64,000 nucleotides of DNA from a virus. A program made the translations under genes and the position numbers. Location of the stretch: the IMG/VR virus record IMGVR_UViG_3300021425_000005. One strand, 5' to 3'. Below the pieces are notes generated by a model, which saw only the letters and a list, made by a program, of their open reading frames with translations, had not been told where the DNA came from and searched no databases. The first letter of the stretch is position 1. Each line of letters starts with the position of its first letter. This document shows, one piece after another, positions 4,519 to 54,670 of this stretch.

Positions 4519-5070
4519 TTATTCTAGCACATTGGAGATAAATGTCAACACCTTTTTTGTATCTTCTGCATTTTTATGTTCGAATGTCGTAATGTCTCCA
4601 TCATCAAACAGGTTTGGTCCAAACTCGGACTTGATATTCTTCAGCTTCGTAAAGCGAGACTGGATGAATTGTTCAGACTGATCAGAGCCACGATCGACAT
4701 ACCGCTGCTCTCGAAGGTCGTCTGGGACAGTCAACTCGACAATCACCAGCTTATGACCAGCTGCTTTCACTGCTTGGAAGAATGAGACTGTGGTCAGGCG
4801 ATCGCCCTCGAATACCACCGTGTCAGCAGGATCTCCCTCGAGATACTCGATTGCCTTCGGTTGGACAGCCATCGAGAGGCGATCGGTTCCAGAGAACACC
4901 TCACCCTCCTCATACTTACCCATGACAAAGATACCCTCATCTCGAGCCAGATACCCATCCAGCAGGTCAACTGGCTTGTGTTCTTCCCACATCCAGTTTT
5001 CAAGAAACTGTTTCATTAATGTCGACTTCCCAGTTCCAGGAACACCGACGATCGCAATCACTGTGCTCAT
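4519..5070 (-). CDS. P-loop kinase, 5-hydroxymethyluracil DNA kinase (5-HMUDK)-like
   Basis: Walker A GVPGTGKST, F.GTDRLSMAVQP, VFEGDRL and R..RGS.Q motifs; adjacent to the amino acid:DNA transferase. Confidence 0.8.
   Translation of the reverse strand: MSTVIAIVGVPGTGKSTLMKQFLENWMWEEHKPVDLLDGYLARDEGIFVMGKYEEGEVFSGTDRLSMAVQPKAIEYLEGDPADTVVFEGDRLTTVSFFQAVKAAGHKLVIVELTVPDDLREQRYVDRGSDQSEQFIQSRFTKLKNIKSEFGPNLFDDGDITTFEHKNAEDTKKVLTFISNVLE
4521..4548 (-). promoter_or_regulatory. sigma70-type early promoter within the 3' end of the kinase gene
   Basis: TTGACA-N16-TAGAAT followed by the conserved GTATAACTTGA leader. Confidence 0.65.
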
Positions 5071-5360
5071 TTAAACAATCCGACCAATGATGGTTTTTTA
5101 GGCATTTCTGTAATCAACCCATGATGAAGACGAACTTGGTCATCAAATTTTTCTACACCACATGCTGTGATCATCTTGCCTTGTTCCTCACACCAGACTG
5201 GGGTGTTATAAGCCTTAATACAGACATTTCTCTTTGGGGAATCTGGGCTATTAGCCCAACCTCTTTCCGTATAGAACTGGTTTTCGGGTAAAAAATCTTT
5301 CCACACTCGACACCAATAGTGTTTCTCACCAAAAATTAATTTAACCATATCACTACTCAT
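5067..5360 (-). CDS. hypothetical protein in the DNA-modification operon
   Basis: 97 aa, 4-nt overlaps on both sides; ends in SLVGLFK. Confidence 0.65.
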   Translation of the reverse strand: MSSDMVKLIFGEKHYWCRVWKDFLPENQFYTERGWANSPDSPKRNVCIKAYNTPVWCEEQGKMITACGVEKFDDQVRLHHGLITEMPKKPSLVGLFK

Positions 5361-6370
5361 AGCGGTAAAACTCCCTCTACATTTTGTTCATCACTATACA
5401 TCATCTCCAGACGATCCAGCTGTCCCGTCTTTAGAAATGAATCAAACTTACTCTTGTTTATACCTGTTTTTGTCGCTAATGTCAAGTCTAAAGTTTCTGC
5501 TCTGGCTTGCCATAACACTTCCCATTCGATACCAGACCACCCATCCTGCTCGACTTTCATAATCTCTTCAGCTTGGCGATCCAGATAGTAACCGAGATAC
5601 CGACCGTGATGTGTTCTAAACAGCTTCTTGAAGGAGCAGAGACACGTCTCCATAGAGAAATAGTCCAACTGATCAGCGAGGTGTGGATATTCGATACGCA
5701 TCTCTTGTAACAGATACCGAGCGTTGTCCTCCAGTCTCTGATACTCGTCTGCAGTCAGCCTTGTATTCACTTTATCCTCTTCGCCGAGAGCATAGAGCCA
5801 GCCATTGCGATGAGAGCGTGAGCCAGAATAATCATTCAGCATCAGACTGGTTGACTCCATGGGGATATCTGCTGTATGCTTCAGCTGTTGCATATAAAAC
5901 CAAGTCGAGTAGCGACCAAACTTATACAGACCATCCTTCAGAGCCACCCAGAGATTATCGAAGTTCTGTTCCTCGTTGTCTCCGAAATACGACTCCAGCT
6001 TCTCACGCTGCGTTCCCTTGCCCACGAACTTCTCATACGAGGCATACATGTCTGCCAGATGTCCCTTGCTCCACTTGGTGTCAGTCTGATAGCGAAGGCG
6101 TTTATAGTTCTCCGTGTTCCAAGCATCCATGCGATCGAATGTAGCCAACTCGAAATCAGGAAACTCATTCATCAGCACCCACGAGGTCGGGAGATAGTAT
6201 GTATTGCCATACAGCCACGAGAACCAGAGGCGTTGCTCATCATTATGCTCATAGCGTTCGTTGATGTAATTAGCCATCCAGATGGCAGGGTCACAGTCAC
6301 CGTAGTTCAGCGACCATGCATACCACCGCTTGAATGCTTCACGACGATTCTGGCGTTCTCTATAATCCAC
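5357..6370 (-). CDS. amino acid:DNA transferase (alpha-glutamyl/putrescinyl-thymine pyrophosphorylase clade 2)
   Basis: DCDP, W..WLYGNTY, LRYQTD.KW, HhH-like FGRYSTWFY.Q, ETCLC.FKK and RY.GYYLDRQ motifs. Confidence 0.8.
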   Translation of the reverse strand: MDYRERQNRREAFKRWYAWSLNYGDCDPAIWMANYINERYEHNDEQRLWFSWLYGNTYYLPTSWVLMNEFPDFELATFDRMDAWNTENYKRLRYQTDTKWSKGHLADMYASYEKFVGKGTQREKLESYFGDNEEQNFDNLWVALKDGLYKFGRYSTWFYMQQLKHTADIPMESTSLMLNDYSGSRSHRNGWLYALGEEDKVNTRLTADEYQRLEDNARYLLQEMRIEYPHLADQLDYFSMETCLCSFKKLFRTHHGRYLGYYLDRQAEEIMKVEQDGWSGIEWEVLWQARAETLDLTLATKTGINKSKFDSFLKTGQLDRLEMMYSDEQNVEGVLPL

Positions 6371-6905
6371 GTGGCTCTTTCCAATAGTCTTTCACGCAAC
6401 CACCCATACCTTTCTTAGTGACTTCTTTCTCTGTATAATCATCCCATTCCCAGATGAGATCGTTTACACTTGGTCCAGCGAGGCGTCCAATAGACAGATA
6501 GGTGTCGGATGCTTGAATGCCCCAAGTCTTAAAACCCACCTTCTGGTAAGCAGTCAGAGCAGGAGCATTGATTGATACTCGGAAGTGTTTTAGATTCGCC
6601 ATATACGCACGATGAACAGCGTCCTCACACAGAGCGCGAAACACACCTTTGCCCCTCGCGTCTGGGATAGTGACGATCCACTTCAGATTAGCATAGTTCT
6701 TCATCATCTTGGTAGCAATAACACCCAAGATCTTACCATCCTCGTAAAATGCGCGGATACAGTCATGACATTTGTCGTCAATGATTCCACGCTTCATTTT
6801 AGAGAAGAATTTGTCTGTGGCTTTATGTTCTTCACAAAACACAGACCATTCGTCAAATGACAGGTTGGAGATCCCGTCCTGCACATTCGACTCGCTCAGA
6901 TTCAT
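6360..6905 (-). CDS. GNAT-family acetyltransferase
   Basis: Motif A VT.PDARGKGVFRAL and motif B N.PAL.AYQKVGF; start trimmed to MNLSES. Confidence 0.8.
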   Translation of the reverse strand: MNLSESNVQDGISNLSFDEWSVFCEEHKATDKFFSKMKRGIIDDKCHDCIRAFYEDGKILGVIATKMMKNYANLKWIVTIPDARGKGVFRALCEDAVHRAYMANLKHFRVSINAPALTAYQKVGFKTWGIQASDTYLSIGRLAGPSVNDLIWEWDDYTEKEVTKKGMGGCVKDYWKEPRGL

Positions 6906-7491
6906 TAGTGATTCCAGCACGTTTTGCAATGTCCTTTGTTGATGTAATAATATAGCCATTATGTAAATCAACCTTGTAGAGAGGTCGTTTACCGTTTCGA
7001 TACCAGACCAACATACCATCAGAGTGCAACTCGATGACAGCCAGCGATGAGTTTTCCCATTCAACAGCAGGATTCAGACCAGCTTCCAGTGTGTGGTTGA
7101 TCAGTTCAGTATCGTTCTGTGTCGTTGTTTTATACCCATACAGCTTCTCCCAGTTCTCTGGGAGTTCCTGAGTGATAACACCATTGTGGACAACAGCGAC
7201 ATCGTCATTGATTTGGATGGGCTGATTGTAGCGGAGATCGCTCGTTGAATAACGACAATGCCCAATCAGGTGAAGATCGCCACTATCATCCAGAAACTGC
7301 TCCATATCAGACAGAGGAGTGAATTCAGGAGATGGGACAGGCTCTTTGATAGTGACGACCTTACCTTTGTTCACATACGATAATCCAGTCGCATGCATAC
7401 CTCGAATGCGAGATTCGAGAAACACTTTCCTCACCATTTCAAGTTGTTCAGGTGTGGGAGATTTGAGTGCTGCACCAATGACAGCGCACAT
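6853..7491 (-). CDS. class II (Ntn) glutamine amidotransferase, stand-alone
   Basis: N-terminal Met-Cys, RG.HATG, GHCRYST, NQP, VHNG and NDTE motifs. Confidence 0.85.
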   Translation of the reverse strand: MCAVIGAALKSPTPEQLEMVRKVFLESRIRGMHATGLSYVNKGKVVTIKEPVPSPEFTPLSDMEQFLDDSGDLHLIGHCRYSTSDLRYNQPIQINDDVAVVHNGVITQELPENWEKLYGYKTTTQNDTELINHTLEAGLNPAVEWENSSLAVIELHSDGMLVWYRNGKRPLYKVDLHNGYIITSTKDIAKRAGITNESERVECAGRDLQPVI

Positions 7492-8795
7492 TAAAACAGA
7501 TCCTCGAGTGAGGCGACACCAGCCGAGTTAGGATGATACTTGGTAAGCATATCCTGACCACCGTGTTCACCAAGATAATCATACCACTCTTGGGTCTCCC
7601 ACATATTAGGAGAGACACCGTTCCAGAGAGGACGCCACTCGGCATGCTCTTCATTCAGGCGGCGATGGTCAACAAAGTTCTTACGCAATGTCTCATATTC
7701 AAACGAACCAAGATTCGCCATCTTCTCGCGAGCATATGCAACGATAGAGATACGGATCGGATCGTCACCGAGGATCTGGGTGTTACCGTGAATGCCATCA
7801 TGGTTGTTCACGAGGAGCAGGTCTCCTGGATGCAACTCAACAGCAATACGATACTCTGGGAGGACAAACAGACAGCCATCCCAGCTTTTCTTACCATCAG
7901 GACTGATACAGCTGATGTTAGAGAAACCCTTTGTAAAGTCACCAGCATCACGGTGAGCAGCAGTGCGGAATGTCTTGTTGACAGTTAGCGTTGTATAAGG
8001 TGTTCCAGGAACTACAAACTTAGGATCGATATTGTTGGTAAACTCAATCTGTTTACCATAGCGTTCGGGGAGCAGTTCCTCGAACTTACGAGCCAGCGTC
8101 TGCAGGTAAGGATAGGACAGAGCGAACATCTCTGGGTTCTTCTCTGTGTAAGATGTAGCGCGACCATATGGGATACGCGGATAACGATCGAACCAGCCAG
8201 CGATACCAGAGTTCACTGTATTGGCATACGAGGTGTCAGAGATATAGTTCTTCACCATAGACTTGGCTTCAACTTTGCGTTCTTTGGCTGACAGTGGACG
8301 AATAGAGTCGAGCCACCAGTCAAAGAATTCAGAGTATTCGACACCAGCCTTTTTGATATTGTCGCGCAACCATACACGTCCACGACCAGCATCATCTGGC
8401 TTGTGGCGAGCAATAGCGTCCTCAATAGCATCGAAGTCTGCATCGAGCGAGGAATCAGGAGCAGTAAAAATCGCGTCGAGGATATCCTCCTGTAGAGGTG
8501 TCACCCAATCACGCTTACCATTCTGTCCTGCGCGTGGTCCAGCAGCCAGACCACGATTCTGTGTCTCGATAGCTGCCTCGTATAGACCAGCATATGCACC
8601 CTCTTGTTCCTCTTTAGAGAAAACTCCCTTACGGAACTTGAAGATGATATTATCTTCATTATTGACCCCACCGATCTTATCCTCGGCATACAGGTCTGTG
8701 TCGGCTGTGATAATCTGATCATAGTGACTATCATCGAGCCACTGTCCGAGCAGATGCTCACAGTCATGCTTTTCAATTGTAAGTTGTTTTACCAT
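7491..8795 (-). CDS. TET/JBP-family 2OG-Fe(II) 5-methylpyrimidine dioxygenase
   Basis: TTLTVNKTFRTAAHRDAGD (HxD), HGNT (distal His), RISIVAYARE (2OG-binding Arg); start trimmed to MVKQL with AGGAG SD. Confidence 0.85.
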   Translation of the reverse strand: MVKQLTIEKHDCEHLLGQWLDDSHYDQIITADTDLYAEDKIGGVNNEDNIIFKFRKGVFSKEEQEGAYAGLYEAAIETQNRGLAAGPRAGQNGKRDWVTPLQEDILDAIFTAPDSSLDADFDAIEDAIARHKPDDAGRGRVWLRDNIKKAGVEYSEFFDWWLDSIRPLSAKERKVEAKSMVKNYISDTSYANTVNSGIAGWFDRYPRIPYGRATSYTEKNPEMFALSYPYLQTLARKFEELLPERYGKQIEFTNNIDPKFVVPGTPYTTLTVNKTFRTAAHRDAGDFTKGFSNISCISPDGKKSWDGCLFVLPEYRIAVELHPGDLLLVNNHDGIHGNTQILGDDPIRISIVAYAREKMANLGSFEYETLRKNFVDHRRLNEEHAEWRPLWNGVSPNMWETQEWYDYLGEHGGQDMLTKYHPNSAGVASLEDLF

Positions 8796-8803
8796 ATTCA
8801 CTC

Positions 8804-9004
8804 CTACCAATGTCTGATCACACCTGCGATAATAAAGAAGCAGGTGATCCAATTCACAAATTGTAGTAACATACGAAGATATAAACCTTTCTTCGCTTGT
8901 TGCATAGTCAGAACAGGGACTTTTGGTTCATCCTCATCTGTCCTGCCAATATAATAGTCGAGCGCACGAGCGACGACTTTTTCCCATGTGCGATATTCAA
9001 CCAT
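8804..9004 (-). CDS. small membrane protein
   Basis: 66 aa with a C-terminal hydrophobic helix ending IIAGVIRHW. Confidence 0.65.
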   Translation of the reverse strand: MVEYRTWEKVVARALDYYIGRTDEDEPKVPVLTMQQAKKGLYLRMLLQFVNWITCFFIIAGVIRHW

Positions 9005-9737
9005 TACGAATCACCTCATTGTAGTTCACTGCCTCTTGGAGGAGAGATAAATTACAATTGTATCTTTTAGATGTTTCAAGCAAGGCTGATGTATCCTTTG
9101 GGAAGCAGTGACCACCGAACCCACGCTCATCTGTAACGACCATATGGCTGTCACCAATGCGTGGATCTCTAGCCACTAATTTCTTAACATTTTCATATTC
9201 TACACCAGTTGCTTCACAAAAGTCAAACAATTGATTGAAGAAAATAACTTTTGTTGCTAGAAAACTATTCACAGCATATTTCATTGTGATTAGTTCTTCA
9301 GGATCTCGACTATACATCTTGCGACCCTCTTGCCAGAAGATGGAAGCCCAGAAAACATCATCGCCGCCACCGAAATAGAATGCTTCAGCGTTGGCGAAAT
9401 CCTCAAATGCAGTTGCTTCTCGGAGAAACTCAGGGCTGAATGTGATATTCAGTTTTGGGAATCTCTCTTTTATCTGTCGCCAACCCTCTAATGAGATCGT
9501 GCTTTTGATCAGGATCGGGATATTTTTCGGACACTCTCGCAACACACTGAATACATTATTCATGTTACATGAGCCATCAATAGATTGTGGCGTAGATACT
9601 GCAACAATAACAGCATCTGGTTTACCGATTTTATTGTCGTTGAATGCTGGATCTACTACAGTGACATCATGCTTTTCTTTCAGCATCATCTCATGTGCCT
9701 TGCCGACAAAGCCATAACCAAATATTGTAATCTTCAT
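8997..9737 (-). CDS. UDP-glucose/GDP-mannose dehydrogenase-family protein (short form)
   Basis: GYGFVG Rossmann motif, KSTI, PEFLRE and GFGGHCFPKD. Confidence 0.85.
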   Translation of the reverse strand: MKITIFGYGFVGKAHEMMLKEKHDVTVVDPAFNDNKIGKPDAVIVAVSTPQSIDGSCNMNNVFSVLRECPKNIPILIKSTISLEGWRQIKERFPKLNITFSPEFLREATAFEDFANAEAFYFGGGDDVFWASIFWQEGRKMYSRDPEELITMKYAVNSFLATKVIFFNQLFDFCEATGVEYENVKKLVARDPRIGDSHMVVTDERGFGGHCFPKDTSALLETSKRYNCNLSLLQEAVNYNEVIRNG

Positions 9738-10156
9738 TCTATATGTCCCACATCAACACCAGCAGTCACAAGAAACACGTTTCCTACATCAGTTTTATAT
9801 TGGTTTTTCCAAACCACGCGAGTGATGCCAGCTTGATAGATTAGTTTCGCGCAATCAAGGCAAGGTGAGTGTGTGGTGTAGAGAGTAGCACCTTCACAAC
9901 TTTCACCAGACCGAGCCACCTTTGCGATGGCATTTGTTTCAGCATGTAACACTTCTGGTTTAGTTACAGGCATATTACCAAACTCGTCTGTAATTTCACA
10001 ATCATTCGTCCACCCAGATGGCATACCATTATATCCGATAGAGATGATGCGGTTATCTTTTACGATAACTGCCCCCACCTGTAGTCGTTTCGCTGACGAT
10101 AGCTGAGCATACACTTCAGCTGCCTTCATATGTGCTTTATCCCACTTGTTCATCAT
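9734..10156 (-). CDS. cd: dCMP deaminase
   Basis: GYNG, HAE and PCLDC zinc motifs. Confidence 0.9.
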   Translation of the reverse strand: MMNKWDKAHMKAAEVYAQLSSAKRLQVGAVIVKDNRIISIGYNGMPSGWTNDCEITDEFGNMPVTKPEVLHAETNAIAKVARSGESCEGATLYTTHSPCLDCAKLIYQAGITRVVWKNQYKTDVGNVFLVTAGVDVGHIE

Positions 10157-11700
10157 AACTCCAGTTTCTTTATTTTATAATCATATATGAATTTATCCAA
10201 AATGTCAAGGGAAGGTGAGAAAGAACCTATCTCTTCAAATGATTGCATCATATCATTTAGCGAATATCCTGCGACGAACCACTCATAAAATTTATAAGGG
10301 TTTGGACCAAACTGCCAGTGATTGTCAGCATACATGTGACAAACCTTCACGATTGCCTCCCAAGCATTGTATGCATCATTCTCCCATGGTATAGAAAAAT
10401 AATCGTTCGCTACACCTGTCGTGAGCATCCTGATGTAATTTTTAATCTCTGTCGAGATAGTATCGTCCCCATACAGAGATTCAATTCTTTCATCATTTTC
10501 TATGAAAATATTATCCCATGTATTATCTGTATATCCATAATTCTTGTAGTCGCGAGAGAAGACTGATGTGTTAATCGTTGTTCCCTCTCTCGGTATGAAC
10601 AGTGGGTTGATTGTCAACGACTCCCCCTGCCAATTATTTTTAATCCAACTCCATGTGTTGTCTATCGTCTCTTCAGTATCATGTGGCAACCCAATAATGA
10701 GACTGATCAGACCTTTATAGAACCCTGTGTGCTTTTTCATATACTCTTTTGTATACAGGATGGTCTCTTTCAGCTTCTCTGGCTCCATGCCTTTACCGAT
10801 AGACTTCGCTGATGCATGATTGAACGACTCAATGCCATAAAAATGACCATTATATCGCATACGAGCAAGATGCTCAATATCATCTGGTCTAGCGGCGAGG
10901 AGATCTGCTCTGATGTAGCCATGAAAATGTGGTTCAAAATCTAGCTTCTCTACTACATTAGCATACTTGATTACCTTCTCCGTGTAATCATTAAACGTCT
11001 CGTCGGCTATTGAATATTTTGTAATGCCCCAAAGGTCGAAATTTGTCTTCAAGTTTTTCTCGAAGTCGACAGCTGACCTAGTGTGGTCGTCTCGAACACC
11101 TAAGATCGGAAATGTGCAAAACTTACATTTGAAGATGCAACCTCTGGCGCATTCCATAGTCAGAGATTCATTAGGATCTAAGAAGTCTCTTTCTTCATAT
11201 TCGATAGACAAATCATCCATCGGGAAGGATGGATATTCATGTAACGCTTCAATGACCCGTCGATTGTCACCCTCTTCATTCCATGGTCTCTCTACATACT
11301 TCACAGTTCCGCGAAGTATCTCTATCATTGCCTTTTCAGCAAATCCTACAACGTGGTAATCTACATTCAATTGATGTATTGTTTGGAATGATTGACTGCC
11401 AGCCACAGTCTTGATATTAGGATAGTTCTCTTTGATCCAATCTACAAACTCACATACTATGGGGAAGTTGATATTGAATGTGCCGCCGAATCCTATCACT
11501 TCGGTATCGTCGTTCACACGACTTTTCACTAATGATTTCAATTCATCTAATGACCATGACATCAAGAAATCAAAGACTTCTACATCATAGCCATATTTTC
11601 TCATGAATGTGGCAATGCGGTGTGTCCCTGCACTTCTACGGACAGATGGGACACCAGTATTAAATTCAAACGTGCCGCCAAATAAAAGCGCATCACTCAA
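10153..11700 (-). CDS. radical SAM protein with B12-binding-like N-terminal domain (paralogue 1)
   Basis: RGCIFKCKFC (CxxxCxxC), ADETFND, GIES, IIGLP. Confidence 0.85.
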   Translation of the reverse strand: MSDALLFGGTFEFNTGVPSVRRSAGTHRIATFMRKYGYDVEVFDFLMSWSLDELKSLVKSRVNDDTEVIGFGGTFNINFPIVCEFVDWIKENYPNIKTVAGSQSFQTIHQLNVDYHVVGFAEKAMIEILRGTVKYVERPWNEEGDNRRVIEALHEYPSFPMDDLSIEYEERDFLDPNESLTMECARGCIFKCKFCTFPILGVRDDHTRSAVDFEKNLKTNFDLWGITKYSIADETFNDYTEKVIKYANVVEKLDFEPHFHGYIRADLLAARPDDIEHLARMRYNGHFYGIESFNHASAKSIGKGMEPEKLKETILYTKEYMKKHTGFYKGLISLIIGLPHDTEETIDNTWSWIKNNWQGESLTINPLFIPREGTTINTSVFSRDYKNYGYTDNTWDNIFIENDERIESLYGDDTISTEIKNYIRMLTTGVANDYFSIPWENDAYNAWEAIVKVCHMYADNHWQFGPNPYKFYEWFVAGYSLNDMMQSFEEIGSFSPSLDILDKFIYDYKIKKLEL

Positions 11701-12527
11701 GTTTTAAATTCCCACTCATGCCCAGCCATTTTTAAGAATTTCATAGCCCAAAAAATATGACGCTTTCGACCAGCATGCATCAGATCCCTAGCAAGATCGT
11801 GGTTGTCAAATATTGTAAAAAATTCATCATCATTGTCTTGATGCGTATGGTAAAATGGAGTTTCAAACTGATCACAAAGCGACTTAATCGCTCGCATTGT
11901 TTTTTCTCTCGATAATATCCATTCACCTTCAGTCTCAAACCTCATAGCAACTGGGTCTGGAGCGTGAATAGATGACATATGAAATCCCATACTGTTAGTT
12001 TGAGTTTCATATCTAACTCCTGGAGGTTCTAAAAAAAATACATGAGAAGGTCTAATTTTTGGCAACCATGAGAGCAAGACACGAAAGGCAGAGTCATGAG
12101 AACCTGCACAGATACCAAGATTATATGGTCTATGGCGTAATGTATTTCCTACAAGAGTTGGCCAAATCTGACCGACTGGCATACCAATGCCAAATGTATT
12201 TGAACAACCGATTGTTATGATGCTTCTTGGTTTTTTTTCATTAGGCATTTCTTCGCAACGAAAACCATAAGAGTTTAGTTGATAAGAAAGTTTTACCCAA
12301 TCATTTAGAACTGGTTTGTCTGGTGTGTAGAGGTAATAGTTATACCCCTTATCCAAGTAAAACTTTTCAATCTGATCTTCCTCGATCGATAACCATCCGT
12401 TTTCTTTTAGTTGGTCGTAATTTTCTTTTAGATTTTTCTCATATAATTCTTCTGTGTCGGTGTTGTAAAATGAATGTTCTGATGGTTCCTCTTCAACACC
12501 TCGAGCATAAGACCATTCGGGTTTCAT
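11697..12527 (-). CDS. SGNH-hydrolase-like hypothetical protein
   Basis: LNSYGFR, IGCSNTFG.G, YNLG, ARDLMHAG. Confidence 0.55.
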   Translation of the reverse strand: MKPEWSYARGVEEEPSEHSFYNTDTEELYEKNLKENYDQLKENGWLSIEEDQIEKFYLDKGYNYYLYTPDKPVLNDWVKLSYQLNSYGFRCEEMPNEKKPRSIITIGCSNTFGIGMPVGQIWPTLVGNTLRHRPYNLGICAGSHDSAFRVLLSWLPKIRPSHVFFLEPPGVRYETQTNSMGFHMSSIHAPDPVAMRFETEGEWILSREKTMRAIKSLCDQFETPFYHTHQDNDDEFFTIFDNHDLARDLMHAGRKRHIFWAMKFLKMAGHEWEFKT

Positions 12528-12813
12528 ATTATTTCCTGTAGGTTAGATGTGCCCACATGCGTGCCCAGAAACCCTTAGTTTTCCAGTCATTATGCACACG
12601 AGTCCACTCGTTGAAACTTTTATAAAGTTTCTGCGGCGGCTGTTCAATCATTCGCACTAACATATTCATCTCCAATTTTTTCAGTCAAATACCAGTTTGC
12701 AAAATCGCTATGTTTTCTCAAGAACTGGTGAACTTGGTCGTGTGTCATCTGATCAGAGCGAATCATCTCAGCCCACATCTCATAGCGTTCTAATTTAGTT
12801 GAAGGAATCACAC

Positions 12814-13005
12814 TCATTTATTTACTCCACCAAAAATTATCTGTAATAGTTTCTTTGCTCTTTTTCGAGCAGCACCAGTTTCGGGAAGTTCTTTTCGTTC
12901 TACCTTTTCCACAGGTGCTGGTTTAGCATCTGGAATGCTTTCTTTACTCGGAGCGCACGAAACAATTAATGTGGCAAGCAACAGACTAATTATGTTCTTC
13001 TTCAT
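12814..13005 (-). CDS. putative lipoprotein
   Basis: MKK, hydrophobic stretch and lipobox IVSC. Confidence 0.6.
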   Translation of the reverse strand: MKKNIISLLLATLIVSCAPSKESIPDAKPAPVEKVERKELPETGAARKRAKKLLQIIFGGVNK

Positions 13006-13336
13006 ATTCTCTCATCCACGTATTAACCTGTGCACGACCAACTTTTTTCTCAATCCAATCTAAAATGATTGCAACTCCGATAATAGATCCTCGTTTTTCA
13101 CCCATGACATACCCTATGGCATAAGCAACAATTAAACAAACCATAGCGATTATTGTATGTGTGATTACGTCCATTAGATACCTGCTCTCAGTTGATTAAG
13201 TTTCTTTTCTGCATATTTCAGCTTTAGCCACTCTTTGTTGACTTCAACATATTTATCAAAATCTACAGGGTCTTCCTGCCAGTCATGCCGTTCCACACAA
13301 TTATCGAACCACATGGTCTTAGCGAAATCTAAAAAC

Positions 13337-31380: not shown

Positions 31381-31905
31381 TCAACTTATAAGTAAATGAA
31401 CCCTATCTGTAACACCTGCATTATAGACAAAATGTTGTTCTTGGGTGTTTACCAGATAAAAATGCGGCATCACCTTCATATGATAAGGTATTAGCTTCTC
31501 TTCTTTATGAAATATGTAACTATCGGGGTTAGTTTGAATCACAAAATGTAATCTTTTATTAGCATCGCTATGCATTTTCAACCCAGTTTGAGTTGCTTGT
31601 GTCATGTATCTGACTCGACCAAGAGGAAATCCTGTCAATTCACATATTCTTTCACACACAAATTTCGTATATCTTGGTGTTTGGTCGTTCCAAGTATTGA
31701 ATGCGGTATCAAATAAACCTCGATGAGTTAATCCACCCTCTGAATCCCACCACTTATTTTCAGTGACAGTATGGCGATGTCTGAGACCTATTTGTTTGTA
31801 TGACTCTTGCGGAGACCACCCCGAAAGTTCTTTACATATTCGATAGTCATCGACCATTTGGTCAATGTCAACATCTAATTCACTTAACACTTTTAAAAAA
31901 CTCAT
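31381..31905 (-). CDS. Asp/Asn beta-hydroxylase-like 2OG-Fe(II) oxygenase
   Basis: RVR.M, MHSD, RLH..I.TN, NT...H...N.G..DRVHL. Confidence 0.65.
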   Translation of the reverse strand: MSFLKVLSELDVDIDQMVDDYRICKELSGWSPQESYKQIGLRHRHTVTENKWWDSEGGLTHRGLFDTAFNTWNDQTPRYTKFVCERICELTGFPLGRVRYMTQATQTGLKMHSDANKRLHFVIQTNPDSYIFHKEEKLIPYHMKVMPHFYLVNTQEQHFVYNAGVTDRVHLLIS

Positions 31906-33473
31906 AGCGATAACTTCGCCTCTTTATAATTATCTAAAAATTCTTTAATTGGTTCATACTCTGGTAACGGTTGCCCTACTATATCAGATATCTCACCAAA
32001 AGATTTTTTAGCAAAGGTCTTCCAATATGGTATATACCAATTCGATACACCCTGATGTGGTATGAATTCATTATTGAACCTCTGAGACCATTCTAATAGA
32101 TCAAAGAAGTTCATACCGATCCTATCGTTTTTCCAAAAGAATGGGCGACTGGCTCTAAAATTGACATCTTTCATTCTATTAATAGCTTCGATGTTTTCAG
32201 GTGTCCTCGGTAAGTGAGAAGGAAACCATTCTTCTAGCGACACGTCAGACTCTATATATCCAAGTTCTTCATAATTGTAAGATAGCGGCGGTAATTTCGA
32301 CATGCTATCTGATGTATGTCCCTTTGGTTGAATTAGCAATGGATTAATATAAACCGATTGCCCTCTCCAATGATTGAATAACCAATCTTTAGTCTCATTC
32401 AGAGACTCCCATGTGTCGTAAGGAAGCCCTGATATGAGTGACATCGTTGTCTTATATATAGGTGCGTTTTTGTTGAAATATTCTCGCATCTCTAATAGAC
32501 CTTCGCGTAGTCTATTTTTAGCCATACCTTTATGAACCCATTTAGCGGATTTTTCATTGAAGGATTCAATACCGTAATGGTGAGATGTAAACCCCATGGC
32601 AATCATATGTTCCCACTGTTCAGGTTTAGCAACAGCGATATCACCGCGAGCGAAACCTGTTATGAATGGCTTGAATGGCAACTTCTTAGTTACATCTGCA
32701 TACTTACGCAACTTCTCAGTATAATCGTTTGTAGTCTCATCTCCAGATATGTAATTGGTGACACCGAAATTATCATAGTTATATCTCAACTCGTCTTCCC
32801 AGCATTGAGCAGTTCGAGTATAATCTTTTGTCACACCCAATGCAGGGGCAGCACAAAACTTACACTTAAAAACACAACCCCTAGAAAATTCTGCATTCAA
32901 AAATTCATCAGGTTGTATGAAGTCTCGCTCTTGATATCTTGTAGGTAATTCTTCTTTTGGATATGCCTTGTAAAAGTGAAGAGCATCGATGACTTTTAAT
33001 TCCTCACCATGTAAATTGACATGTTTACTAATAATTGGTTTCTTACCAGAGCCATGTAACCAATTCAGTAGTTCAACGATTGCATACTCACCCCAACCTT
33101 GGATATAATAATCTGCCTTAAATTCTTCGACAGTTGTTACGATTGGACCACCTGCGATAATTGTGATGTCAGGGTATTTTTCTTTGACCCACTCGAGAAA
33201 TGGGTTCATGTGTTGTGCCCATAATGCTTGAAACAAAGAACTCACACCCAGAAATTTTGTCCCCTTATTATACCTCATCGTCCAGAGTAGTTTTAATTCC
33301 TCAACGGTAAAGTGTGGGACAAAGTCTATAACCTCTACGTCCCACCCAATAGCACGTAAATGTGTAGCGATCTTATGTCCACCATAAGATCTTTTTGGAT
33401 CTGCTAGGATCGATTCGGGGGTGTAGCCAGTATGTTCATACAACTGACCACTAAAAATCATACCGTGATCCAT
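31902..33473 (-). CDS. radical SAM protein with B12-binding-like N-terminal domain (paralogue 2)
   Basis: RGCVFKCKFC, DETTND, GIESF, ISGLP. Confidence 0.85.
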   Translation of the reverse strand: MDHGMIFSGQLYEHTGYTPESILADPKRSYGGHKIATHLRAIGWDVEVIDFVPHFTVEELKLLWTMRYNKGTKFLGVSSLFQALWAQHMNPFLEWVKEKYPDITIIAGGPIVTTVEEFKADYYIQGWGEYAIVELLNWLHGSGKKPIISKHVNLHGEELKVIDALHFYKAYPKEELPTRYQERDFIQPDEFLNAEFSRGCVFKCKFCAAPALGVTKDYTRTAQCWEDELRYNYDNFGVTNYISGDETTNDYTEKLRKYADVTKKLPFKPFITGFARGDIAVAKPEQWEHMIAMGFTSHHYGIESFNEKSAKWVHKGMAKNRLREGLLEMREYFNKNAPIYKTTMSLISGLPYDTWESLNETKDWLFNHWRGQSVYINPLLIQPKGHTSDSMSKLPPLSYNYEELGYIESDVSLEEWFPSHLPRTPENIEAINRMKDVNFRASRPFFWKNDRIGMNFFDLLEWSQRFNNEFIPHQGVSNWYIPYWKTFAKKSFGEISDIVGQPLPEYEPIKEFLDNYKEAKLSL

Positions 33474-35077
33474 GACAGCTTCTTCAGTTTGTATTGTTCA
33501 ATAAAGGCATTTCTTTTCTCGTCATTTTCCTTATAACGAGGGTCGTTCGTCAACTCGTAACCTGTCATATTGATGACATCATCTAAATCATATACACCGA
33601 AAGTCGTCCACCTGTGGAAGTTCCAAGACAAACATTTTTGTGAGTGAACAAATCCATTTCTGGTGATATCTGCATAATATTTAGCTTGTATCTTAGTTGC
33701 TTCCCAAAAATTCATGATGTCTGTTTCCCAAGCCATCGGAACAGCATGTTTCTTTTTATATTCTTCGGGGAATCGACCTACATGTTGGAAGTGAGTTTTG
33801 ACTTGTTCTCTGATCAGTTCAGGGATTTCATTGTAATCAATATTCCAATCATCTACATTACCTTCTCTATATAATCCCGAAGATACTGCTGTTCTATCAA
33901 ACTCGGAACTATTTTCAGCATAGACCGAGTCGTGTGATGTAGAAATAAACAATGGGGTGATTGCTATAGACTCATTAGGCATATTTTTCTGTAGCCAATT
34001 GATACCATCATCGAAAGATTCTTCAGTCTCGTTAGGTAATCCAACGATGAGGCTAGATGTTGACCGATACTTGTTATTATATTTGAGAAATGATTCTCTG
34101 CAATCTACTAATCCCTGCTTCAGACGATCTACATTTAATCCTTTACCGATAGATTTAGCAGCATCTTGATGAAATGACTCAATACCATAGAAGTGACCCC
34201 AAAGACCCATACGTTGCATATTCTCCCAGTCGTTCTGTCTTGTAACAACCAGATCTGCACGAGTGTATCCTGTCATATTCAAGTCATACCCCAGATTATC
34301 AACTACATTCGCAATGCCGAGTAGTTTCTCGGAACTGTCGTTGACGGTCTCATCAGCAATAGTATAACTGACTGTCCCCCACTGCTCATAATTTCGTTTT
34401 AGTTCATCATGTATATTGAGCATGTCGCGCTCAAAATTACCCTTCATACCGATCAAATTGTATTGACAGAATTTACATTTAAACTTACAACCTCGAGCGA
34501 ATTCTAAGTTCAACCATTCTGTTGGTTGTATGAAATCTCTTTCTTGATATCTTACCTGCAAATCTTTACACGGATACGCTGGATGATGTGTGTCCGAGCG
34601 TATGAGTTTTTTCATTCCAAGGTCAGTCTCTACTTCTTGGATGACAGGATTACCATTGTTGTTCGTTAGCTTTTTGAGTAATTCTAGCAAACCATACTCA
34701 CCATAACCTGTAATATAATAATCAAGGTCAATCGGCATCATGGTGCTGAGGTTCTTTGAACCACCCAATAGTGCTATGTCAGGATAGTTATCTCGTAGCC
34801 ATTGTATTTTTTTAGAAAGTTTTGCAGCATTCTTTGGAGTATATGAAAACATAAAACTGACACCGATGAATACAGTATCAGATGTCACCCTAGATTCTAT
34901 GAATTCTTCAAACTCATCGTCTTGCCATTCATTGATGAAGTCACAAACCTCGATATCCCAACCTTCTTCACGCAAAAAAGATGCAATACGATACGCACCT
35001 GCAGCCCTCTTCATTGAAGTCCGTTCAGGCTCTAGTAGAGTCAGCTCCTCATATCCACCTAGTAATATTCCGTGCAT
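33458..35077 (-). CDS. radical SAM protein with B12-binding-like N-terminal domain (paralogue 3)
   Basis: RGCKFKCKFC, ADETVND, GIESF, IVGLP. Confidence 0.85.
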   Translation of the reverse strand: MHGILLGGYEELTLLEPERTSMKRAAGAYRIASFLREEGWDIEVCDFINEWQDDEFEEFIESRVTSDTVFIGVSFMFSYTPKNAAKLSKKIQWLRDNYPDIALLGGSKNLSTMMPIDLDYYITGYGEYGLLELLKKLTNNNGNPVIQEVETDLGMKKLIRSDTHHPAYPCKDLQVRYQERDFIQPTEWLNLEFARGCKFKCKFCQYNLIGMKGNFERDMLNIHDELKRNYEQWGTVSYTIADETVNDSSEKLLGIANVVDNLGYDLNMTGYTRADLVVTRQNDWENMQRMGLWGHFYGIESFHQDAAKSIGKGLNVDRLKQGLVDCRESFLKYNNKYRSTSSLIVGLPNETEESFDDGINWLQKNMPNESIAITPLFISTSHDSVYAENSSEFDRTAVSSGLYREGNVDDWNIDYNEIPELIREQVKTHFQHVGRFPEEYKKKHAVPMAWETDIMNFWEATKIQAKYYADITRNGFVHSQKCLSWNFHRWTTFGVYDLDDVINMTGYELTNDPRYKENDEKRNAFIEQYKLKKLSWITV

Positions 35078-36539: not shown

Positions 36540-39101
36540 TCATTTCTTTTTAATCTTGAATTTTTTCGCTTTATACTTAGAAGCACTGCCGCCCTTCTTG
36601 ACAACAAACTTCTTAGCTTTTTGTGATGTCATCGCACCACGCTTCTTCAGTCGATTCAACTCAGCTTTGCGCATTTGAGGAACCATACGAACAGCGATAC
36701 GAGCAATCAACGGTTGAAAGCGTTGAATCATTTTTTCAAGGCGAGACTTTTCAGCTGGTGGAAGCGAACTTTTATCGCGACCACGAAGCAATCTCTTATA
36801 CATCATACCACGTGCACCACGAGTAGCACGCATTTTAATTTTATCTGGTGTAGCAGACTTACGCATCGCACGAGCGCGAGCAACTTTCAGCTTCTGTTTA
36901 TTGCGGCGAGCAGCTTGGCGGCGTTTAATACGACCCAATGGCGTGAGTGCTTCAGTAACCTCGACATCAGAGTGAACATCATCTGGATCGATTTCGAATG
37001 TTTCGATCTCATCTGGGCTATACATGCCCAACTCAATCATATCATCAATCGTGAGATTATCAGCCTGATTCATCATATCTTGGATATCTTCGTCAGTCAG
37101 AGTGAAATCCATCGGTTCACCAATCTCAGGTTTACTGTGATCAGCCAGTTCCCAAAACTTTTTAATATCTTCAACAACATCTAATACATTTTCGCGAACG
37201 ATAAACCCATCGCCGCGATCTTTGTAACCATCGGGAATAGGGGTGCATGCCTTGCGTTGACGACACCAGTAGTATCCTTCTTCACACTTATGACCATCTT
37301 CTTCGTTTACTTGTTCTTGTTTCTTCGCTGCAGTATTTCTTTCAGCTGATTTTTTCCAGTAGTCACTTTGCGCTTTCTTTTTATCCAAGAACTTCTGGAG
37401 CCTCTTGTGAGCAGGAGACTTATATATGCCATAATCAGTTTTCTTACCGTAGAGATTAGATCCCTCATTTACTTCCTCCTCCATTTTTACTGCTTTGTAA
37501 TGATGTTTAGAAGTAGTTTTATTTTTCTTTGTGGTTTTTCCTGGCTCTCCTGGAGTTACAGCTTTCATGTATTCAGTCCCTTCAGGTGTTCCCCATTCGT
37601 ATTTGTATTCTTCAGCAGCATACTTCTTAGGGAGTTTACCTTTCTTGATTAAGTCATTCACCAAATCTGAAAGTTGTTTTGGATGTTCAGCACCCATACT
37701 TTTACGAAAGAAATCCCAAGATTTTGCTCTTGGATTCTGTTCTTTATGTTTGATCCATTGCTTCACAGCATGCTTATAGCGTTTACGATTATAGAGAACA
37801 CGGTCTAGATATTTGTCGAGGGCAGGAAACAACATCGCGCCTGTCGACTTATCACCCCAAGCACCTGCCTTTCCAAAAACTCTTTCATAGAGATCTTGCT
37901 CTTCATCTATTTTGATTTTATCAAATGTCTTTGTATCTTTAACACGCTGTTTAGAAACACGCTTCTTAACATTGCGAAGTTTGCCGATCTTTGGTAGCGT
38001 CATTGAATCGCGCTCTTCGGATTCTTCTTTATTCAAGAGATTATCGACATACTTGGTATATTTTGATGGTTTAGTTTTAGCAGTCTTGTCTCCAGGAGCT
38101 GGCTTGTATGCCTTTGGATCGCTATCTGACATCTTAGCTTGGCGTTTGAATTGAGCATCACGAGCCTTTTTAGTTGATTTGCTCAAACCTTTATGATACT
38201 TAGCAGGTTGTGAACCCTTGCGCTTGGCGATATCTTTATCTTGCGGGACTTCTGTTTTTTCTTCCATGGCATCTAACTTAGCAGCGATTGCCATTTGGCG
38301 GCGTTTTGCCTTTGACTTGCCTTTGAACTGTGGAGCATCTGACTTATAAAAATCATCAATCCAATCACCCATCGAGTCAGACGCTTTTAATTTCTCAATC
38401 AGCTCAAGCTGCTCTACAGCTTCTTCGCGCATCTTTTGTTTTTGAGCGTTCGTTATCCACTCACGTGCCTTATGATTTCTAACAGGGGCACGGACAAACT
38501 GCTGAATTTGCCGATAAGCTGATAATGTGTTAGATTCTACGTTACTGTCAGAACTATTGTCAACAATAATCATTTCATTTCTGAACATACGCTGAAACGC
38601 ACCGATGTTATTTTGAACATCATTCCACATTTTCTTTACTACATTATCAGGAAGTGTTCTTGCTCTTGCTCTATTTCTTTCAAGAGCAGTTTCAATATCA
38701 GTATTGACAAAAATCATAGCTACATCATAACCGATGTTTTTCAAAGTAATCATTTGACGCTGAATTTTCGCAACATCTTTACCAGTGCCATCGATAACGA
38801 GACCAAGACGACCGATAACTGAGAGACTCAGCTTCTTTTGCGTGAGATATTTAGCTTGTTTTCTGATAGATTGACCCTTTTCTGAGTAAATATTCTCAGG
38901 AGTCGGAGCCATTTCTGCTTTACGAAGAGCAGCTTCAAACACATCGTCAGAGTTAATAGGTCTAAGACCAAAAGTTGACAAAGCAGTTTTACCTACCATG
39001 AAGGATTTACCACTTCCTGGACCACCTGCAAGGAATACTGCCTTGAAGATTCCAGGGTCGTTCACACCCTCTGAGATAAATTCTTTAAAACTTTCGGTCA
39101 T
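36540..39101 (-). CDS. zeta-toxin-like P-loop kinase fused to multiple basic modules (polyprotein)
   Basis: MTESFKEFISE; FLAGGPGSGKS, INSD, VIDGT, ALERN..R.R; acidic xxE linkers between C-terminal modules. Confidence 0.75.
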   Translation of the reverse strand: MTESFKEFISEGVNDPGIFKAVFLAGGPGSGKSFMVGKTALSTFGLRPINSDDVFEAALRKAEMAPTPENIYSEKGQSIRKQAKYLTQKKLSLSVIGRLGLVIDGTGKDVAKIQRQMITLKNIGYDVAMIFVNTDIETALERNRARARTLPDNVVKKMWNDVQNNIGAFQRMFRNEMIIVDNSSDSNVESNTLSAYRQIQQFVRAPVRNHKAREWITNAQKQKMREEAVEQLELIEKLKASDSMGDWIDDFYKSDAPQFKGKSKAKRRQMAIAAKLDAMEEKTEVPQDKDIAKRKGSQPAKYHKGLSKSTKKARDAQFKRQAKMSDSDPKAYKPAPGDKTAKTKPSKYTKYVDNLLNKEESEERDSMTLPKIGKLRNVKKRVSKQRVKDTKTFDKIKIDEEQDLYERVFGKAGAWGDKSTGAMLFPALDKYLDRVLYNRKRYKHAVKQWIKHKEQNPRAKSWDFFRKSMGAEHPKQLSDLVNDLIKKGKLPKKYAAEEYKYEWGTPEGTEYMKAVTPGEPGKTTKKNKTTSKHHYKAVKMEEEVNEGSNLYGKKTDYGIYKSPAHKRLQKFLDKKKAQSDYWKKSAERNTAAKKQEQVNEEDGHKCEEGYYWCRQRKACTPIPDGYKDRGDGFIVRENVLDVVEDIKKFWELADHSKPEIGEPMDFTLTDEDIQDMMNQADNLTIDDMIELGMYSPDEIETFEIDPDDVHSDVEVTEALTPLGRIKRRQAARRNKQKLKVARARAMRKSATPDKIKMRATRGARGMMYKRLLRGRDKSSLPPAEKSRLEKMIQRFQPLIARIAVRMVPQMRKAELNRLKKRGAMTSQKAKKFVVKKGGSASKYKAKKFKIKKK

Positions 39102-51748: not shown

Positions 51749-52116
51749 TATTCGTGCACTCCATAAACAATTTTTTTCAAGTCAGGTTTAAAATATGTAT
51801 CAGGTTTCATGACCTTACCAAATTTGTTCTTAATAACTTTGCCGTCTACACATTTACTCATATTTGACGCTCTGACCTCGCGCCATACATCTTCAAAAGG
51901 AATGCCAATTGTATTGGCCAATCCCATAATGACCCAAACCATATCAGCCAACCCATCGGCGACTTCAACAAGGTCTTGGTTGGCATATGCTTCTTTTGTT
52001 TCTTCCCATTCTTCGCGAATGAGTTCCATATAAAGATACGCTTGTCCTGAATCTAGACCCTGATTAGAAGGCTGATCACAAGCGTCCATAAATCTTTTAA
52101 CATCAATTTGATACAT
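51748..52116 (-). CDS. MazG/PRA-PH-like NTP pyrophosphohydrolase
   Basis: LIREE..E, EVADGLAD, EV..SNMSK, GKVMKP. Confidence 0.8.
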   Translation of the reverse strand: MYQIDVKRFMDACDQPSNQGLDSGQAYLYMELIREEWEETKEAYANQDLVEVADGLADMVWVIMGLANTIGIPFEDVWREVRASNMSKCVDGKVIKNKFGKVMKPDTYFKPDLKKIVYGVHE

Positions 52117-54632
52117 TACGAAAATAAATCCTCTAGTGTGGCAACTGGTTTTGTTTTCCAACCAATGCTCGTTGCAATTGTATTTAGCGGTTCAATAAAT
52201 GCCTTCTCAAACATTAATTCATAGTCGATATATTTGTGAAGGTCAAATTCTTTTGGAATCTTAGAGGAAAATGCAATTACATTCTCACCAAGAGTGTTTG
52301 GTTCTTTCAAGTAAACGAACTTAATCTTATCACCTTCATTGATTATAGGATATTTCATTTCAAGTTTAGCTTTCTTCAGTTCGTTATTATACAAAAGTGC
52401 ACCACGAACCTGAATCGGCGTTCCCTTTTGATAGATGTCAGCTGTTGAAGAATACTTAATTAAATTGTTACAACCGCGAGGGAAGGCAATTTCTTCAGCT
52501 GGTCTTGATTGGAAATCTTGCCAGTTGTTTTCAACAAACTTTTGCAATGCTGCCTCGTCTTGTGTGAGGCATAGCTTCACCGCTTCTCGAAGACTTTCTC
52601 GGACAGGTGCTGGAGTCGATGAACGAACAATCTCAAGACCCATAACCTTCAGCTTTGGTTCGGAATATCGAACACCCTCATTATCATAAACATTCAAAGC
52701 ATACCGCTTCTTGGCGACCCATATTCCTTTATCAGCGATTGCCTCTCGTTTGAAGAAGATCTTTTCTTCATAGGCATTTGTGTATTCAGCCAGCTTTGTC
52801 ATGGCTTTAGCAATCGCTGGTTCAATCTTTTCTTCAGCAATCTTGTCAAGAACATCAACAATCTTTTCTTTACTTAACCCACTATAAAACTTTTTGACCA
52901 ATTTGTCAAGGGTAATATAGCAAGAATCTGTATCTGAATAGAAAGAATAAACTTCACCTTCAGTGCCACAGACTTCGTTAAGATATTCATCAAGTGCCTT
53001 GGCAGTCTCACGGATGATAAACTGACCAGATAATGTAATACCCTCAGCAATCTTATCATCATAATATCGGAAATACTGATTAGCGAGCGCACCATAAAGA
53101 CTGTTCAACTGAATCTTACGAGCCATCTGGAAGTTATTGTATTTGGCAATTTTACTTTTTAGGGATGGGTCTTTTGTCTTCTCAAACTCTCGCTCAGTTT
53201 CTTTCATCAGCTTCTTGTATTTTTGGCGATCATCAAAGAATGTCTGAGTAATCTCAGCGAACACACCTTGCTTATCTCGTGAAAACTTAGCACCATTAGC
53301 AGACATCGCGTGATCAGTATCGATATTTGTTTCTCGATTCAGGAGATGATCGACTGTAGTATCGATCTGTGCCTCATCAACCAAAGTCTCGGGTGACATA
53401 TTGTATTGCATAATAATAGAAGGATACAAAGATGTCGCATCGAAACTCAGAACCCAATCATATTCACCGATCTCAGGTTGCTGAACATATGCACCCTCAA
53501 TAGTTCTATCCTCGTTTACACGCTTCTGTGGAATCATAATATTCTTTTTAAGAAGATGATTATACAGAAGACAATCCCATGTCCGAACAGAAGAATAAAT
53601 GTCAGTGAGATTACACTTGGCATCATAAGCCATAGTTGCAATCAACTCGATAAGTTTCATCTTGTCTTCAAGTTCATCGACAAGTTGAGTATCGATGATG
53701 TTGTAGTCAATAAACCGATTCCAATCTTTCTCATAGAACTCGCGGAATGTGTCGTAGTTATTTTCAAGTTTTTTGTGACCGAGTTCTACTTCAGCGATGT
53801 AATCAAGTTTATATGATTCACGAACAGTATAAGTGAACTTTTTATACAGGTCGAGATAATCGAGTTGAGCAACACCTTTAATATCATAAAGGGTGTGTTC
53901 TTTACCCATAATAGTAACAGACTTCCGACGAGTCATGTCGAATGGGCTGAATCCATTTCTCACCTTGTTTTCTTTTAGTTCATCTTGTTTACCAAACTTT
54001 CTGGCAAACCGAGACAAGAGATAAGGAATATCAAAAAACTCGATGTTCCAGCCAGTTACAATATCAGGAGTATTTTGAACCCACCAGTTACCAAACTTAC
54101 CAAGAAGTTCTATCTCATCAGAACAAGGCTCATATGTAACATTAAGATTTTTTATCTCATCTGATACTGGCGTCCACTCACCAACACCCCATGTCAAAAC
54201 CTCTTTGGTGTTATTGTTCATCACTGTGATGAGGATAATTTCTTCAAGGGGATTTTCTGGATCTGGGAATCCAAATTCAGTCGTTGTCTCAATATCAAGA
54301 GACCAAATACCCATTTGAGACATATCAAATGGAACCTCATCAGGATATTTCTGAGAAAGATATTGATATGTAAAATCAGTCTGACCGTAGATCGGATAGT
54401 TCCCAATACCCTCATATGTCTTCAGAAATTCTTTACATTCAGAAGCGTTTGGAAACTCAATAGGTTTTAAGTTTTCACCATACAAACCTTTGATGTCCGA
54501 TTCCTCTTTGGAACGAACATAAAGTTTAGGTTTAAAGGAAGGGTCTCGTTCCGTGAAGGGCTTGCCATCACGATAACCTCTGGTCAATACGTTTTTACCA
54601 TATTGCCAGCAATAAGTATAGAATTCAGCCAT
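52116..54632 (-). CDS. 43: family B DNA polymerase gp43
   Basis: DIET exonuclease, D..SLYPS, KIQLNSLYG, YSDTDS, KKRY; C-terminal TLEDLFS; start trimmed to MAEFY. Confidence 0.97.
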   Translation of the reverse strand: MAEFYTYCWQYGKNVLTRGYRDGKPFTERDPSFKPKLYVRSKEESDIKGLYGENLKPIEFPNASECKEFLKTYEGIGNYPIYGQTDFTYQYLSQKYPDEVPFDMSQMGIWSLDIETTTEFGFPDPENPLEEIILITVMNNNTKEVLTWGVGEWTPVSDEIKNLNVTYEPCSDEIELLGKFGNWWVQNTPDIVTGWNIEFFDIPYLLSRFARKFGKQDELKENKVRNGFSPFDMTRRKSVTIMGKEHTLYDIKGVAQLDYLDLYKKFTYTVRESYKLDYIAEVELGHKKLENNYDTFREFYEKDWNRFIDYNIIDTQLVDELEDKMKLIELIATMAYDAKCNLTDIYSSVRTWDCLLYNHLLKKNIMIPQKRVNEDRTIEGAYVQQPEIGEYDWVLSFDATSLYPSIIMQYNMSPETLVDEAQIDTTVDHLLNRETNIDTDHAMSANGAKFSRDKQGVFAEITQTFFDDRQKYKKLMKETEREFEKTKDPSLKSKIAKYNNFQMARKIQLNSLYGALANQYFRYYDDKIAEGITLSGQFIIRETAKALDEYLNEVCGTEGEVYSFYSDTDSCYITLDKLVKKFYSGLSKEKIVDVLDKIAEEKIEPAIAKAMTKLAEYTNAYEEKIFFKREAIADKGIWVAKKRYALNVYDNEGVRYSEPKLKVMGLEIVRSSTPAPVRESLREAVKLCLTQDEAALQKFVENNWQDFQSRPAEEIAFPRGCNNLIKYSSTADIYQKGTPIQVRGALLYNNELKKAKLEMKYPIINEGDKIKFVYLKEPNTLGENVIAFSSKIPKEFDLHKYIDYELMFEKAFIEPLNTIATSIGWKTKPVATLEDLFS

Positions 54633-54638
54633 GTTCTC

Positions 54639-54667
54639 AGTATGCCTCAAATGGGCAAAAATGTCAA
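54639..54667 (-). promoter_or_regulatory. sigma70-type promoter of gene 43 (probably leaderless)
   Basis: TTGACA-N17-CATACT-N6-ATG. Confidence 0.7.
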
Positions 54668-54670
54668 GTA

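Follow-up and report, generated by a model that had tools for sequence, protein, structure and literature searches.

Why should an enzyme that oxidizes DNA bases end in the same short peptide as a DNA polymerase? The window, as we call the whole 64,000-nt stretch of DNA from a T4-like phage analyzed here, raises this question with two genes on its minus strand. One encodes a TET/JBP (5mYOX) dioxygenase, here called TET, which is probably a thymine dioxygenase (7491 to 8795; 434 aa; Pfam PF12851, 7e-19). The other encodes a family B DNA polymerase, a gp43 homologue (52116 to 54689; Pfam DNA_pol_B, 2e-34, and exo1, 5e-25). A sequence-only reading of the window had proposed that the dioxygenase end, ASLEDLF-stop, resembles the polymerase end, ATLEDLFS-stop, and we confirmed this on both open reading frames (ORFs).

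The TET/JBP dioxygenase, its gene cluster and its C-terminal tail

The dioxygenase ORF, which spans 7491 to 8852 on the minus strand, has the C terminus NSAGVASLEDLF-stop. Its start codon is probably the ATG at 8795, giving a protein of 434 aa that matches database homologue P0001. The last seven codons and the stop codon (7491 to 7514, minus strand) encode the putative gp45-binding epitope, A-S-L-E-D-L-F, which sits at the extreme C terminus; homologues have 0 or 1 trailing residues. Between this tail and the folded enzyme lies a variable linker (7515 to 7535, minus strand), delimited by homologue entropy and AlphaFold2 (AF2) pLDDT.

The polymerase is 857 aa long and ends in KPVATLEDLFS-stop. 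Its tail, A-T-L-E-D-L-F-S plus the stop codon, is the positional equivalent of the clamp-binding peptide of T4 and RB69 gp43. The earlier reading had located this tail correctly at 52116 to 52142 (minus strand) but had overstated what that range contains, which is the last eight codons and the stop only, a trivial slip. The tails of the two proteins are identical at 7 of 8 aligned residues (V-A-[S/T]-L-E-D-L-F), and that of TET is hydrophobic and acidic in composition, like that of the resident polymerase. At the DNA level they have 16 of 24 nucleotides in common, with three synonymous codon differences, and the likeness is therefore one between proteins and not the result of a recent DNA copy. 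When all 676 window ORFs of at least 40 aa were examined in six frames, the strict tail pattern was found at the C termini of two, those encoding TET and the polymerase.

The enzyme itself scored 68.1 bits against PF12851, for which the gathering cutoff is 34.9, and residues H281, D283, H336 and R348 were invariant in alignment A1; presumably these could be the HxD...H iron site together with the 2-oxoglutarate-binding residue, as known for the family. An AF2 model built from 33 homologues (mean pLDDT, 85) had a TET-type jelly-roll fold, with TET2, the fungal CcTet and NgTET1 of Naegleria as its best Foldseek matches (E values of 6e-11 to 2e-8). Across the last 14 residues of the model the pLDDT dropped to 71 and then to 56, and the tail appeared as a low-confidence appendage with a one-turn helix.

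TET lies in a cluster of genes transcribed in the same direction. Downstream, on the minus strand, are genes for a glutamine amidotransferase (6853 to 7491; Pfam GATase_6/7), the ATG of which overlaps the TET stop codon, a GNAT acetyltransferase that is tail-less in the window (6360 to 7064; Pfam Acetyltransf_1), an amino acid:DNA transferase (ADDT/AADT; 5357 to 6370; Pfam PF18724, 5e-17) and a P-loop nucleotide kinase 3, probably a 5-hmdU DNA kinase (4519 to 5070; Pfam PF18751, 7.5e-15). The PF18751 kinase and the PF18724 transferase are thus within 3 kb of TET on the same strand. Upstream in the cluster are a UDP-glucose-dehydrogenase-like gene, a dCMP deaminase gene and a gene for a B12 radical-SAM enzyme. 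A TET/JBP gene accompanied by such kinase and transferase genes constitutes the published thymidine hypermodification set, in which 5hmU is made in situ (PMC8989533; PMC13229309). No C5-methyltransferase was found in five related genomes, and this absence, together with the kinase/ADDT context, makes thymine rather than 5mC the likely substrate of TET.

Read from its TTG start, the GNAT ORF shares about 210 nt with the amidotransferase gene (6853 to 7064), and since its Pfam domain starts at residue 73, the true start is probably an internal Met codon. Between the transferase and kinase genes, a 97-aa ORF at 5067 to 5360 ends in S-L-V-G-L-F-K. We considered this as a further tail, but it is probably due to chance, the gene being present in one close relative only and lacking a family match.

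Tails in related phages

We looked across TET homologues to determine how far the tail is conserved. The motif [ST]-L-[ED]-x-[FL]-F, followed by 0 or 1 small residue, was present at the C terminus of 122 of 130 nonredundant homologues. In this set the final F did not vary (entropy, 0.0 bits) and the L hardly did (0.23 bits). Apart from the x position, with 2.2 bits, the tail columns fell between 0 and 1.6 bits, and those of the linker preceding the tail ranged from 2.8 to 3.6 bits. All 120 of the closest database homologues (50 to 100% identity) were tailed, a few of them with shortened or variant tails, and after clustering at 50% identity, the representatives of the family of about 430 to 470 aa kept the tail down to about 40% identity. 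Relatives encode identical tail residues by differing codons and end on differing stop codons. Conservation behind a near-random linker, combined with synonymous codon usage, shows that selection acts on the tail peptide. A need to preserve a ribosome-binding site for the next gene, which overlaps, was considered as another cause of the conserved 3' end and rejected: relatives have different genes at that place and vary the tail codons synonymously.

In a Cr30-like subgroup the TET tail is shortened and lacks acidic residues. One full-length homologue, P0138, is tail-less; its contig carries T4-type structural genes, and the replication module is unreadable there.

To place the motif against chance, we scanned 13,853 six-frame ORFs from 15 related sequences and derived the expected number of tails from the internal frequency of the motif. 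Strict tails were observed at 25 C termini (0.005 to 0.08 expected), and loose tails were observed on 30 ORFs of at least 200 aa (0.77 expected); on short ORFs of 40 to 100 aa, loose tails occurred at the chance rate. The tailed ORFs of at least 200 aa in these 15 sequences encoded only the polymerase (PolB), TET, a TET-associated glycosyltransferase (TAGT), Dam and GNAT. Carriage of the tail therefore singles out the polymerase and enzymes of DNA modification pathways.

TAGT is tailed in DLP6 and in contig G010, and 113 of 120 TAGT homologues carry the tail. About half of the 120 closest Dam homologues are tailed and the remainder end at the usual Dam terminus. A tailed GNAT occurs in G003, a close relative of the window phage, between the amidotransferase and transferase genes; it is not orthologous to the window GNAT, although it occupies the equivalent position. 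In G002, a relative with 84% identity, only PolB and TET are tailed among ORFs of at least 100 aa. We also observed that in C48C1 a Dam-type N6-adenine methylase gene (L124:14474-15364) lies immediately downstream of the polymerase gene, its product extending past the usual Dam end by a linker and a clamp-type tail.

The pairing of TET with the polymerase extends beyond the window. In all 21 other genomes or contigs in which both genes could be read, a related tail was present on both proteins. Both proteins carried the full motif in 17 of 17 IMG/VR contigs with both genes, in the distant contig L154 and in phages C48C1 and DLP6; Cr30 combines a shortened TET tail with a divergent polymerase tail. 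The two tails of one genome were more alike than shuffled pairs (p ~0.007), the lineages compared not being independent, and with the same dependence among lineages the tail type, L-F or F-F, was concordant between the two proteins in 14 of 15 cases. The discordant case, contig G022, has an LF tail on TET, a common TET type that it represents, and an FF tail on the polymerase. The gp55 tails of four relatives were far less similar and hence uninformative: each has a hydrophobic-acidic segment of only loose likeness and then an acidic end.

L154 offers the most distant pairing. Its TET belongs to a distant lineage (33% identity, without the N-terminal domain) and lies inside a split polB gene, and the last six residues of TET and polymerase are identical there. 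This contig is a 220-kb circular T4-like sequence in which polB is divided into an N-terminal part (8550 to 10004) and a C-terminal part (12412 to 13293). The region between the two parts (L154:8550-13293) holds the tailed TET gene and a 229-aa ORF, the start of which resembles a GIY-YIG homing endonuclease. The interruption may be a mobile insertion carrying a DNA modification gene.

The sliding clamp, ParB and the proposed role of the tail

The window encodes the proposed docking partner. A gp45-type sliding clamp of 218 aa (60140 to 60796, minus strand) matches T4 gp45 from end to end (PDB 1CZD; E value of 2e-17, full length) and also matches RB69 gp45 (1B77/1B8H). The clamp loader is represented by homologues of its large subunit, gp44 (58574 to 59521, minus strand; Pfam AAA and Gp44_lid; 34% identity to T4 gp44), and its small subunit, gp62 (57354 to 57863, minus strand; Pfam Phage_clamp_A, 2e-14). 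The polymerase is 32% identical to T4 gp43 over its full length, and gp44, gp62, RegA, UvsX and gp41 helicase genes around the clamp and polymerase genes make up a T4-type replication module. Two insertions in the clamp/loader block are unusual: a peroxiredoxin gene between gp45 and gp44 (59524 to 60129) and a gene for a TauD-family 2-oxoglutarate dioxygenase between gp44 and gp62 (57790 to 58593).

We then compared the distribution of the clamp with that of ParB in IMG/VR contigs of at least 26 kb. The sequence-only reading had called for a comparison of tail conservation between clamp-encoding and clamp-less phages, and the outcome was as it predicted: gp45 was encoded by 14 of the 21 contigs with a tailed TET of about 430 aa and by none of the 18 contigs with a TET of the tail-less, roughly 300-aa clade (Fisher's exact test, 8e-6). 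ParB_N showed the opposite distribution, with 0 of 21 and 12 of 18, respectively (5e-6). Members of the short tail-less clade end in an EELERAKxR extension, which the window enzyme does not have. Among isolates whose TET homologues have no tail, no gp45 match was found in S-CBWM1, HTVC112P or P12024L, and in HTVC112P a ParB gene lies directly upstream of TET. ParB_N was not found in DLP6, C48C1, Cr30, the complete contig G009 or G002, and a tblastn search of the window, which has low sensitivity, gave no significant ParB match.

These distributions bear on a recent study of short T-dioxygenases, which need a ParB-like partner on double-stranded DNA (dsDNA); ParB was suggested to stabilize the enzyme on DNA (O'Toole et al., PNAS 2026, PMC13229309). 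ParB-less members of clade C1 looked inactive in E. coli (PMC13229309). The clamp tail may stand in for the ParB that partners other phage T-dioxygenases, and it would then be an alternative answer to the same problem of holding the enzyme on DNA.

The proposal that TET carries a gp45-binding type of tail like that of the polymerase has strong comparative evidence in its favor, namely, the conserved tail, the variable linker, the pairing with the polymerase, the co-occurrence with gp45 and the presence of tails on other modifying enzymes. That the last six or seven residues form a putative T4-type clamp-binding epitope on a flexible linker is strongly supported. Taking all the observations jointly, we consider the best explanation, and quite a probable one, to be that the tail is a gp45-binding epitope and holds on the clamp a thymine dioxygenase whose reaction opens the pathway of a kinase/amino acid transferase hypermodification cluster; here we infer binding, substrate and benefit alike. 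In the mechanism that we propose, the gp44/62 loader would place gp45 on replicating phage DNA, and TET would dock on it through the tail, as T4 gp43, gp55 and gp33 do. The clamp-held enzyme would slide along duplex DNA, oxidizing thymine to 5-hydroxymethyluracil, which the kinase, the amino acid:DNA transferase, the amidotransferase and GNAT would turn into hypermodified thymine. The clamp would probably keep TET on dsDNA or activate it there, the role that a ParB-like protein has with the short T-dioxygenases of small phages. Several observations weigh against this explanation: the imperfect covariation in G022, the shortened Cr30-like tails, the dissimilar gp55 tails, the tail-less P0138, and the failure to reproduce binding of T4 α-glucosyltransferase, itself tail-less, to gp45.

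The earlier reading had gone on to suggest that the tail spares the host chromosome and permits self/non-self discrimination, and this benefit we find unsupported. Loading of gp45 takes place wherever DNA offers a primer end or a nick, and host DNA is in any case usually degraded by T4-like phages. E. coli DNA is modified by other phage T-dioxygenases, which need no clamp to do so (PMC13229309). It is no less likely that the benefit lies in modification that is faster, more complete or competent on dsDNA than in the sparing of host DNA.

Might the tail instead dock on a partner other than the clamp, such as a different protein of the replisome or a host protease recognizing hydrophobic C termini, in which latter case it would be a degron timing turnover? 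Hydrophobic C termini can serve as protease tags, which counts toward this alternative, as do the differences in detail between the TET motif and the T4 tail. However, the polymerase tail occupies the position of the T4/RB69 peptide whose crystal structure on gp45 is known, the presence of the tail tracks gp45 across phages, and a degron common to TET and an essential replicase seems unlikely. We therefore regard a non-clamp partner as improbable. Slightly less probable still is that the tail does bind the clamp but for regulatory competition, modulating polymerase exchange or clamp-dependent late transcription until the DNA has been modified. The clamp has only three sites, common to gp43, gp55, gp33 and the loader, and several tailed enzymes would compete for them; against this, every tailed protein that we found is an enzyme acting on DNA, which fits tethering to a substrate, and no regulatory protein with a tail was found.

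There is very little chance that the likeness of the tails is functionless, arising by coincidence or from a 3'-end fragment of the polymerase gene brought in by recombination. Short motifs do recur by chance, as the loose tails on ORFs of 40 to 100 aa did at the chance rate, and the 97-aa ORF at 5067 to 5360 ends in a tail-like but unconserved sequence. The strict motif, however, was seen 25 times where at most 0.08 was expected, and over 90% of homologues retain the TET tail, which persists to about 40% identity, with synonymous codon differences. These conservation data effectively refute a functionless likeness. Tethering to the clamp is the reading that we prefer. A broader version of it, which we advance tentatively and with some doubt, is that gp45 serves as obligatory activator and processivity factor for a toolbelt of postreplicative modifiers (TET/JBP, TAGT, GNAT and Dam) in T4-like phages outside the T-even group, functionally replacing the ParB of small-phage T-dioxygenases.

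Relation to known systems

The closest precedents for the tail are the epitopes of T4 and RB69. In T4 the gp45-binding epitope is interchangeable among gp43, gp55 and gp33, which carry it on variable linkers (review, PMC2988020), and the RB69 clamp-peptide crystal structure is PDB 1B8H (cited in PMC2988020). In the T4 genome (NC_000866), gp43 and gp55 end in a hydrophobic-acidic epitope. The gp43, gp55 and gp33 epitopes and the putative tail described here have in common a hydrophobic-acidic peptide at the extreme C terminus, a variable and probably unstructured linker, and a phage that encodes gp45, gp44 and gp62. They differ in that the carrier here is a DNA base dioxygenase instead of a polymerase or transcription factor, and in consensus, which is [ST]-L-[ED]-x-[FL]-F here and S-L-D-F-L-[FY] in T4.

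The ParB-dependent T-dioxygenases (5mYOX clade C1, PMC13229309) resemble the window system in linking TET/JBP to a GATase, a P-loop kinase and an amino acid:DNA transferase, and in being postreplicative thymine oxidases that are believed to depend on a DNA-encircling partner when the substrate is dsDNA. In contrast to them, ParB was absent from five near-complete relatives and from the 21 contigs here, and the proposed partner is the replication clamp. The window enzyme also has an additional N-terminal domain of about 180 aa and the clamp tail in place of the EELERAK extension. Metavirome clusters of TET_JBP, 5-hmdU kinase and aGPT-Pplase/AADT genes (Lee et al., NAR 2021, PMC8989533) match the window in gene set, in predicted chemistry and in having 5hmU made in situ as the acceptor, but no clamp or replisome link is mentioned there. 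Burke et al. saw that some TET genes have clamp-loader genes nearby and interpreted this differently.

Clamp-associated DNA modification has a eukaryotic parallel in DNMT1 and PCNA (PIP box; PMC9690074), where a DNA modifier with a clamp-binding motif likewise lets modification follow replication. That system is evolutionarily unrelated; its clamp is PCNA, bound through a PIP box, where here it would be gp45, and its reaction is methylation instead of oxidation. Within T4, the proposed pairing of α-glucosyltransferase with gp45 and the complex of DNA ligase with gp45 (PMC6212786) likewise cast gp45 as a toolbelt for DNA-processing enzymes. The title of that paper gives the ligase a "unique mode" of clamp interaction. 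Binding of the α-glucosyltransferase to gp45, which had been proposed earlier, was not reproduced (bioRxiv 10.64898/2025.12.06.692756), and the T4 enzyme has no such tail (NC_000866). No link between a gp45-binding tail and TET/JBP, TAGT or phage Dam enzymes was found in full-text searches of the literature. The tail described here would be a known type of clamp epitope on a known type of hypermodification enzyme.

Postreplicative hypermodification has to be both fast and complete if the phage genome is to be marked before host nucleases attack it or packaging begins, and the 2026 ParB study explicitly raises the question of how the modifying enzymes find DNA and stay on it (PMC13229309). A clamp tail would answer it simply for a large group of T4-like phages from the environment. 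One prediction is that gp45 and its loader are needed for full enzyme activity, which would be useful for reconstitution or for use of the enzyme as a tool. If the proposal is true, the gp45 "toolbelt" would extend from replication and transcription to DNA base modification. A clamp that is an obligatory activator, if true, would couple hypermodification to replication, as a phage counterpart of DNMT1-PCNA, and could account for the apparent inactivity in E. coli of clade C1 TETs that lack ParB and were expressed alone (PMC13229309, PMC8256090).

Other genes of the window may deserve notice in their own right. Three B12-binding radical-SAM enzymes are encoded within its 64 kb (10153 to 11700, 31902 to 33473 and 33458 to 35077), one of them adjoining the modification cluster. 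In an 853-aa protein encoded at 36540 to 39101, a long stretch without assigned domains follows an N-terminal Zeta-toxin/AAA_33 kinase-like domain.
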